DNA from: a virus
IMG/VR virus record: IMGVR_UViG_3300031673_000012
Location: 1 to 64,000 of that record
Reading direction: 5' to 3' (one strand)
Length of the DNA stretch: 64,000 bases
A model generated the notes under the pieces. That model did not search any database. It saw nothing but the letters and a program-made list of their open reading frames with translations, and was not told where the DNA came from. This document shows, in pieces, positions 58,753 through 59,562 of this stretch (within the stretch, counting starts at the first letter, position 1; every line of letters starts with the position of its first letter). The position numbers were made by a program, and so were the translations under genes.

Positions 58753-59562
58753 TTAAATTAATACTGGTAAATCTTTTAAAATATCTGCAATCTTATCATC
58801 ATTTATCATCCCGTCATAAAGATATGGTCCCTCATCCTGCTGGTCCGGCTCGTCTCCGCTTTCATCATAAGTATGACTACCATGAGAAGAAATCTCAAAA
58901 CAATAGACAGTACCTTCAAATATCTGCCTGTCAATAAGTTTATCCGGCCCCTCAATAGTACAAGCCTGAGAGAATCCCAGTCTCCTTAATTCTCTGGCAG
59001 CTAAATCATCCCATTGCCTGTAAGTAAGTCCCTTCTTCTTAGTTTCTATCAATGCGTAATGATAGGCTCCATTTGCCCTACCATTAAATACTGCATCTGC
59101 AGCCGTTTCGTAATCCCGGCAAGCTGACATTGCTATATAGTTAAGCCCTTCAGTCGGAGACAATACCTTATTCACTATCTCTTTATGTATAGGGAATTGT
59201 GGGTTATGATAAACCCTTGCCTGCAATAAATTATCAGGTTGTATGGCCCGTGTATTTGATTCTGAGAAACAAGTATCCATGATAAACAAAAGAAGATCAC
59301 CGGGCTTCATTCTCGAAACAACCGCTTTTAATTCAGACAGGAATCTGGCACAAGTTGATTGGGAGTCTTTGAATTTCCTAAATGTGTAATAAGGCCAGAT
59401 TTTAAGAACCGCCTTTTCAAAGTCAACCTGGTCATTGGGAGGCCCGGCAAGATCATTCGCCGTTCCGGGATAATTGCCACAGACAATACTAACAACTGTG
59501 TTATCGGTAAAGTCAGGCAATTCCACTACATCATTATTCCCAAACCATTTCTTAAAGCACAT
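58753..59562 (-). CDS. caspase-family (C14, metacaspase-like) protease with permuted segment order
   Basis: NY...LAGPPND, KPGD, DTCFS, SACRDYETAAD, GAYHYAL, then SHG...GDEPDQQDE...DD at the C-terminus. Confidence 0.85.
   Translation of the reverse strand: MCFKKWFGNNDVVELPDFTDNTVVSIVCGNYPGTANDLAGPPNDQVDFEKAVLKIWPYYTFRKFKDSQSTCARFLSELKAVVSRMKPGDLLLFIMDTCFSESNTRAIQPDNLLQARVYHNPQFPIHKEIVNKVLSPTEGLNYIAMSACRDYETAADAVFNGRANGAYHYALIETKKKGLTYRQWDDLAARELRRLGFSQACTIEGPDKLIDRQIFEGTVYCFEISSHGSHTYDESGDEPDQQDEGPYLYDGMINDDKIADILKDLPVLI

Follow-up and report, generated by a model that had tools for sequence, protein, structure and literature searches.

A gene for a metacaspase-like cysteine protease was analysed in the virus record IMGVR_UViG_3300031673_000012 of IMG/VR. 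The window, that is, the whole stretch of DNA analysed, comprised the first 64,000 bases of this 85,418-bp record, which is rated 100% complete. Almost all open reading frames (ORFs) of the window were located on the minus strand, and among their products were tail sheath, tape-measure and tail-spike-like proteins; the phage is therefore contractile-tailed. The protease ORF, designated P0001 (Table 1), ended with a stop codon at 58753–58755 and was continuous, with no internal stops. It passed the Pfam threshold for Peptidase_C14 (PF00656) with 28.6 bits compared to a cut-off of 21.4 (E = 1.4e-6), and the match fell into two stretches. PF00656 was matched nowhere else in the 85,418-bp genome; therefore, the phage has no second caspase gene able to supply a His segment. 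No family was obtained when PHROGs was searched with P0001, and tblastn against public phage genomes yielded no match, near-identical records being possibly outside that set. In P0001, the block carrying the catalytic His was located at the extreme C-terminus, behind the catalytic Cys.

Table 1. Features of the segment-swapped protease gene and of the genes beside it in the window
Feature	Coordinates	Strand	Content and basis
Segment-swapped C14 (metacaspase-like) cysteine protease, P0001	58753..59562	minus	269 codons and stop; Pfam PF00656 match
Segment A, residues 1–89	59296..59562	minus	Met-Cys (MC)-start N-terminus, β1 (22–27), helix α1, β2 (60–65), helix α2, PGD end, invariant Asp44; model, invariant columns, alignment to N-terminal part of 3bij, Yca1 and AtMC9
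Segment C, residues 90–215	58918..59295	minus	Cys strand 90–96 (Asp96, Cys98), p10-like region with S-A-C...E-T-A-A-D-A (146–157), last sheet strand 202–204, Phe215; alignment and model
Segment B, residues 216–269 (relocated block)	58756..58917	minus	β3-equivalent strand 219–225, His227, acidic-loop hairpin 227–248, α3-equivalent helix 255–262; alignment and model
Catalytic Cys98 codon	59269..59271	minus	Motif and invariant column
Catalytic His227 codon	58882..58884	minus	Motif and invariant column
Two small upstream ORFs	59565..59982	minus	82 amino acids (aa) with a transmembrane (TM) segment, 59734–59982; 69 aa, 59565–59774
Downstream 281-aa gene	57896..58741	minus	4-TM holin-like half and signal-peptide barrel-like half; starts 11 nt past the caspase stop

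McLuskey and Mottram (2015, PMC4357240) describe one core topology for clan CD (caspases, metacaspases, legumains, gingipains and separase), in which the His is carried on β3 and the Cys follows on β4. P0001 does not follow this usual linear order of C14 enzymes and is a topological variant rather than a standard member. Three segments were defined in the protein (Table 1), and they are arranged as A-C-B compared to the canonical A-B-C, with Cys98 ahead of His227. The PGD motif (residues 87–89) adjoins the Cys strand (D96-x-C98) without an intervening block, and the final 54 residues hold the SSHG motif, followed by the acidic loop and then the DD-helix. A preliminary description of this DNA had claimed as much, namely, that the PGD segment is joined straight to the Cys strand, that the missing His block is intact at the C-terminus, and that all catalytic and acidic motifs are retained in one frame. 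The first claim was borne out by the codon coordinates on the minus-strand ORF, the second by the alignments to 3bij, 4f6o and 8a53, and the third by invariance across 51 family members. The same description spoke of a topological permutation. The change of order stands, but circular permutation of the entire chain would give B-C-A or C-A-B and does not describe P0001; judged from the alignments, two adjacent segments have traded places, and only the B-C sub-region is circularly permuted.

The relocation was visible in alignments with proteins of known structure. A single-sequence alignment to GSU0716 (3bij) placed query residues 212–262 on target residues 69–119 and query residues 140–179 on target residues 200–235. 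When a profile built from 51 family members was used, the alignments to 3bij, Yca1 (4f6o) and AtMC9 (8a53) consisted of three pieces each, which followed one another in the order first, third, second. The pieces (query/target) were 29–91/18–78, 214–263/72–121 and 108–199/167–256 for 3bij; 14–52/47–85, 220–262/132–178 and 135–192/268–327 for Yca1; and 10–55/22–67, 215–265/107–158 and 135–202/262–333 for AtMC9. The counterparts of segment B (3bij 72–121, Yca1 132–178 and AtMC9 107–158) all precede the Cys strand in those proteins. The comparison was closest with the canonical phage sisters P0053 and P0054, which share the MC-F-K-K-W-F start and 34–37% identity with P0001. In these sisters, P-G-D is separated from the Cys strand by ~55 residues (a strand, S-G-H-G, the acidic loop and the D-D helix), and the chain ends a few residues past a conserved Phe, whereas in direct alignment P0001 has no such block in mid-chain and has one after the equivalent Phe215.

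The first search round comprised the query and 85 hits (P0001–P0086). According to motif patterns, the Cys lies ahead of the His in P0001–P0052 and the reverse holds in P0053–P0086; the His pattern failed in two of the 52 permuted proteins and the Cys pattern in one. Hidden Markov models (HMMs) of the segments placed C before B in all 52 and returned the canonical order in 34 of 34 of the others, which rules out a chance match. Over the 353 related proteins, the segment HMMs found C before B in 82, including 75 A-C-B proteins, two split A-C-C-B proteins and five C-B fragments, and the remainder were canonical or partial. A profile search over 1.84 billion representatives yielded 10,873 hits at E ≤ 1e-3, and the best 150 of these contained 27 A-C-B proteins and three C-B fragments; more permuted lineages may exist among the remaining hits. 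The permuted form was encoded as one open frame at eight viral loci. An apparent B-less form, P0096 (213 aa, A-C only), was rejected as a truncated copy of the permuted protein P0352.

Conservation was measured in an alignment of 51 sequences, down to 35% identity. Gly33, Asn36, Asp37, Asp44, Asp96, Cys98, Asp156, Phe215, Ser225, His227, Gly228, Glu238, Asp240 and Glu244 were invariant, and His227 was the only conserved His, whether invariant or near-invariant. Asp233, Asp237, Glu238, Asp240, Asp243, Glu244, Asp255 and Asp256 were conserved in at least 90% of the sequences. Segment B showed the highest mean pairwise identity in every group: the values for A, C and B were 39.0, 43.7 and 50.4 in the permuted clade (74 proteins), 38.7, 32.1 and 53.3 in the canonical MC-start proteins (28 proteins), and 51.4, 47.0 and 62.1 in a second permuted lineage described below (lineage 2). 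The N-terminus was also distinctive. Met1 and Cys2 were conserved in at least 90% of the 51 permuted sequences and were invariant in 12 canonical ones; residues 1–7 (59542–59562, minus strand) consist of Met-Cys followed by basic and aromatic residues that are kept in permuted and canonical phage caspases, and a Pro-rich linker follows the Met-Cys start in many relatives. This N-terminus may be a membrane-binding or modified tag.

An AlphaFold2 model of P0001 was obtained from the 51-sequence alignment with a mean predicted local distance difference test (pLDDT) score of 80.7 and a predicted template modelling (pTM) score of 0.82. DSSP assigned strands to residues 22–27, 60–65, 90–96, 112–115, 143–146, 155–159, 162–165 and 202–204 and then to 219–225, and the C-terminal end was modelled as strand 219–225, a hairpin (227–232/242–248) and a helix (255–262). 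In 10-residue blocks over residues 211–269, pLDDT ranged from 75 to 97, with 97 for 211–220 and 87 for 221–230; in a predicted model, such values at 211–230 are typical of a buried core strand. According to the account of clan CD in PMC4357240, the common sheet order is 2-1-3-4-5-6, the His and Cys stand at the C-terminal ends of the neighbouring strands β3 and β4, a small three-stranded sheet lies between β3 and α3, and the minimal caspase/haemoglobinase core consists of β1–β4 and α1–α3. Because the elements of the model match this account, segment B as modelled is the unit formed by β3, L3 with the small sheet, and α3. His227 is located two positions past the predicted strand 219–225, and Cys98 two positions past 90–96.

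Residues 19–217 of the model were superposed on known structures with VIA-align. The matches were AtMC9 (8a53_A; Z 15.8, root-mean-square deviation 2.8 Å, 179 residues), MC4 (6w8t_A; Z 15.8), GSU0716 (3bij_B; Z 13.8) and caspase-3/-7 (Z ~12), and Foldseek agreed on a metacaspase/caspase fold (best E 4.1e-8). Over these residues, the predicted structure belongs to the α/β sandwich of C14 and clan CD. Taking together the confidence of the model, the strand assigned by DSSP, the topology and the geometry that the remaining core has kept, we infer that strand 219–225 fills the slot between β1 and β4 and puts His227 beside Cys98. Several points weigh against this placement. The docking of the strand comes from these indirect indications; both structural aligners are sequential and stopped at residue ~217, so that the superposition stands for residues 19–217 and the C-terminal block itself was left unaligned; and the model of lineage 2, which was built from a four-sequence alignment, was poor (pLDDT 42.6).

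In the arrangement we propose, β3, the His/acidic hairpin and α3 have been moved from between α2 and β4 to the extreme C-terminus. After the last sheet strand, a linker of ~14 residues would return the chain, and strand 219–225 would insert between β1 and β4; the insertion would rebuild the 2-1-3-4 sheet and set His227 next to Cys98, with α2 feeding β4 directly. Topology would allow this return, since the last sheet strand is antiparallel and ends on the side where β3 begins. The ~14 residues at 205–218 are free for crossing back, and a shift of α2 by one strand suffices to feed β4.

The probable chemistry was read from motif alignments. In trypanosomal TbMCA2, as described in PMC4357240, the S1 pocket is acidic (Asp95 and Asp211), and the Ca2+ site involves the acidic loop after the His (Asp173/189/190/220). 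Asp96 of P0001, two residues before Cys98, occupies the position of TbMCA2 Asp211, and Asp44 is located within the motif aligned to the G-C-x-N-D region that holds TbMCA2 Asp95; both are invariant. In P0001, the Asp and Glu residues after the His fall on the corresponding acidic loops of Yca1 and GSU0716 in the profile alignments, as a putative Ca2+-site-like loop. The invariant Asp44 and Asp96 and the retained acidic loop point to a metacaspase-like, Arg/Lys-directed enzyme, possibly a Ca2+-dependent one. We estimate at about 75% the probability that P0001 is a genuine segment-swapped C14 protease, conserved and competent for catalysis.

The history of the permutation was followed in FastTree and IQ-TREE trees of 87 rows, for which the three segments were aligned separately. 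The Met-Cys-start proteins formed one clade of 55 of the 87 rows (Shimodaira–Hasegawa-like approximate likelihood ratio test, SH-aLRT, 93), composed of 30 permuted proteins, 24 canonical MC-start proteins and one other canonical row. The permuted rows of this clade were split into three groups in both trees. We do not claim several origins within the phage MC clade: a tree constrained to hold its 30 permuted rows as a single clade was slightly better than the free tree (log-likelihood, lnL, +3.85; approximately unbiased test, p-AU 0.58), and one origin within this clade is therefore the best reading.

Lineage 2 comprised P0152 and P0233–P0235, which are also A-C-B, share 48–52% identity with each other and come from separate short contigs. 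These proteins were monophyletic (SH-aLRT 98) and were nested, in the other half of the tree, in a nine-row clade with five canonical proteins. Their His block carries an insert, C-P-Y-D-x-D...N-P-L-S-D-D, which is otherwise found in mid-protein in their own canonical sisters (P0173, P0236, P0239, P0240 and P0242). When all 34 permuted rows were forced into one clade, the tree became worse by 84.8 lnL units (p-AU 0.033). The permutation thus apparently arose twice, once in the phage MC clade and independently in lineage 2, the insert shared with its own sisters being the stronger argument and the rejection of a single clade the second. In both lineages, the block begins a few residues past the canonical C-terminus and ends right after α3, so that the breakpoints coincide with the borders of structural units. 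Weighing against two origins, the p-AU of 0.033 is modest and lends support without deciding the matter, as the groups were named only once a first FastTree tree was known; many of the deep branches are weak, with 45 of the 84 inner branches open; and lineage 2 consists of four proteins only, on contigs of 1.6–2.9 kb. Regarding its provenance, one distant locus with canonical order was found among the viral loci, and none of the 23 bacterial-genome loci was close or permuted.

The simplest and likeliest route to the A-C-B order would be a partial tandem duplication giving A-B-C-B-C, from which the first B and the last C were then lost. Against this route, no intermediate such as A-B-C-B was found by the segment HMMs among the 353 proteins. 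Among 1793 candidates for longer forms (472–2000 aa), nothing scored, which is weak evidence. Tandem caspase domains were observed only in the giant proteins P0201 (1091 aa) and P0211 (1303 aa), with the patterns A-B-C-B-C and B-C-B-C, a type of duplication from which the permutation could arise. Canonical MC-start caspases were common on viral contigs, with 237 relatives found and 80 loci kept, some of them in giant-virus bins. Canonical small caspases akin to the MC-start group were located on giant-virus-bin contigs at L054, L056, L065–L068, L071, L074, L076–L081 and L083–L085.

The 69-aa ORF upstream stops 2 nt ahead of the caspase ATG and overlaps the 82-aa ORF by 41 nt. Because of the 2-nt and 11-nt gaps around the caspase, the 69-aa ORF, the caspase and the downstream gene form a tightly packed trio. 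Pfam detected nothing above cut-off in the neighbours of the caspase in the window. The preliminary description had placed the caspase among membrane and holin-like genes; this holds and extends to the relatives, in which the TM and barrel halves of the downstream gene are separate neighbouring genes. Of 86 viral loci, 14 had a homologue of the barrel half immediately behind the caspase and in the same orientation, four of them permuted (L004, L005, L038 and L082) and 10 canonical. Homologues of the 4-TM half had this position and orientation in four of the 86 (L001, permuted; L022, L037 and L042, canonical). For a synteny listing, 19 loci were used, and in 17 of them an ORF with at least two predicted TM segments followed the caspase directly (in L024 with one ORF intervening); the ORF at L038 had one TM segment. 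The usual arrangement behind the caspase was a 2-TM protein of 72–88 aa and then a signal-peptide protein of ~150 aa ending in an aromatic residue.

Eleven permuted members (P0037, P0039–P0043, P0045 and P0047–P0050) carried a C-terminal tail of 89–109 aa that was up to 64% identical (E ~1e-29) to the free-standing 2-TM protein; by this fusion the protease is tied to a membrane partner. The 2-TM protein has a conserved T-P-E-Q loop and is encoded as a separate downstream gene in other phages (e.g., L013 6795–7013 and L005 6819–7040). Ten neighbouring ORFs of 136–173 aa were scanned, yielding Peptidase_M15_4 in one, CHAP in one, Peptidase_M15_3 just under the cut-off in one, DUF5675 in five and nothing in two. 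The first ORF of L011, behind which an M15_3-like gene and a canonical caspase follow, shared 70.6% identity with the 82-aa upstream ORF of the window. DUF5675 adjoins the caspase in the slot used elsewhere by M15 or CHAP (L004 1279–1704, L013 5194–5604, L024 1334–1744, L038 4796–5224 and L042 7942–8442), a position that hints at a possible lysis function of DUF5675.

The preliminary description had suggested virion, lysis or host-defence proteins as possible targets. The synteny favours a role at the envelope or in lysis, and we tentatively regard the protease as an accessory enzyme of an envelope-disruption or lysis programme that acts with membrane partners, a possibility we would rate clearly below even odds. 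It would act on the cytoplasmic side of the inner membrane together with the conserved downstream membrane proteins and would perhaps be switched on by Ca2+ entry once the membrane is breached. Other observations argue against this role. The 19 loci of the synteny listing were hand-picked from the 86. The sole recognised wall hydrolase of the phage is an Amidase_2 protein (36.8 bits) encoded outside the window at 75840–76223 on the minus strand (L111), ~16 kb off, and DUF5675, M15_4, M15_3, CHAP, Phage_lysozyme and SLT were not found in the phage's genome, although the control for DUF5675 was blank and its result says little. The link to lysis therefore rests on the relatives. The caspase gene of the window, furthermore, sits between tail-fibre-like genes. 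This position and the distant hydrolase suit the main alternative to lysis, in which a protease of the same fold serves counter-defence or virion maturation by cleaving host immune or phage structural proteins. This alternative appears less probable still, since it is membrane and barrel proteins that are conserved beside the caspase, with wall hydrolases in the relatives and fusions to the 2-TM partner, and the only structural genes among the conserved neighbours are fibre-like ones, in five of the 86 loci.

The position of the block at the chain end also suits a second alternative, in which the His block would contribute to the active site of an adjacent subunit and not to that of its own chain, in a domain-swapped dimer or head-to-tail oligomer, so that activity would need self-association, for example at the membrane. 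The block is held on a linker of ~14 residues, a geometry that suits swapping; the 11 fused members tether its chain end to the 2-TM protein; and a design that arose twice hints at an advantage beyond neutrality. On the other hand, the single-chain model is confident (pTM 0.82), and metacaspases are described in PMC4357240 as active monomers, and we consider such swapping improbable. We would give equally long odds to the idea that the His strand at the free chain end is a conditional latch: the protease would be incomplete until the C-terminal strand inserts, either from its own chain or donated between subunits brought together at the membrane by the 2-TM partner, and this zymogen switch would time the envelope-breaking step, with selection and not drift behind the two lineages.

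A catalytically dead pseudo-protease, retained as a scaffold or binding protein that kept its fold after a disruptive rearrangement, would have a precedent in the pseudo-orthocaspases mentioned in PMC7889975. It is very unlikely for P0001, in which substitutions at His227, Cys98, the two putative S1 aspartates and the acidic loop are absent or rare across 51 sequences and segment B is the best conserved part; a dead enzyme would hardly keep all of these. The preliminary description had preferred a functional permutation over decay, and the invariant residues, the conservation of segment B, the confident model and the single caspase gene support that preference. An artefact of assembly or gene calling, be it a chimeric contig, a frameshifted gene or a fusion to an idle remnant of a second gene copy, is conceivable in a metagenome-derived sequence but has next to no probability here, as the identical protein was recorded from five contigs, the order recurs in 81 other proteins from several sources, in independent assemblies and at the eight one-frame viral loci, and the frame is continuous with no other conserved His. 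As far as the sequences go, the order is a conserved family trait, and misassembly, frameshift and decay are not tenable because the order recurs while the catalytic residues are invariant and segment B is the best conserved.

The data indicate a real, conserved, segment-swapped metacaspase-like phage protease that is probably active. The core of clan CD can probably be rewired inside its four-strand minimum without loss of the catalytic residues, a point strengthened by the apparent second occurrence. The family provides a rare natural case in which segments of an enzyme core were exchanged in a non-circular way, and a test case for fold plasticity, strand insertion, structure predictors and sequential aligners, the last of which miss the block. 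Permuted proteases are under-annotated because domain models split the protein, as seen here in the Pfam E of 1.4e-6 and the lack of a PHROG. In many uncultured phages, moreover, this unstudied protease keeps company with genes for holin-like proteins, barrel proteins and wall hydrolases. A partial copy of P0001 (P0353; 105 aa, in its 90% cluster) was recorded in a Bacteroidales metagenome-assembled genome at NCBI (HUX56343.1), a weak hint at a Bacteroidota host or at a phage contig binned together with its host. The question raised is whether proteolysis is an envelope-disruption step in these probably Bacteroidota-infecting phages.

In the full-text literature searched, which covered few subscription journals, relocation of the His block was unreported, and the word "permuted" was absent from the text seen of PMC3482391. 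The only natural rearrangement of metacaspases found there was that of type III, known from algae with secondary plastids, in which p10 has moved ahead of p20 (Choi & Berges, 2013, PMC3734836). As presented in that paper, type III enzymes have their N- and C-terminal parts exchanged and keep the His before the Cys within p20. In P0001, by contrast, segment A is in place, the p10-like region (~135–205) stands between the Cys strand and the His block instead of ahead of p20, and it is the β3-His-α3 unit that trades places with the Cys strand and the p10-like region. Engineered caspases show that the caspase fold tolerates changed connectivity and stays active, as in caspase-3/-6 with swapped subunits (Srinivasula, 1998, as cited in PMC3734836) and the circularly permuted cpCasp2 (PMC7760212). 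In the accounts given there they are man-made and have the subunit order p10-p20, and their cut falls in the inter-subunit loop, outside the four-strand core.

Type I and II metacaspases (Yca1, 4f6o; TbMCA2, 4afr; AtMC9, 8a53; MC4, 6w8t) share with P0001 the best structural match (Z 15.8), an acidic loop after the His, D-x-C, a p10-like S-x-C...Q/E-T-S/A-A-D and aspartates at the S1 positions, whereas P0001 is far smaller, has neither a prodomain nor a long linker, and differs in segment order; its Ca2+ and Arg/Lys traits are putative and read from sequence. The nearest likeness is to GSU0716 (3bij), of the small stand-alone metacaspase-like or orthocaspase type of bacteria and phages, in length (~260–270 aa), fold and motifs, with the top sequence match among PDB entries (profile E 2.1e-15; structural Z 13.8), and to the canonical MC-start phage sisters (e.g., P0053 and P0100), in N-terminus, neighbour genes and 30–37% identity. 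Both differ from P0001 in carrying the His block between α2 and the Cys strand, compared to the C-terminal 54 residues in P0001, where the relocation reverses the order of the dyad.

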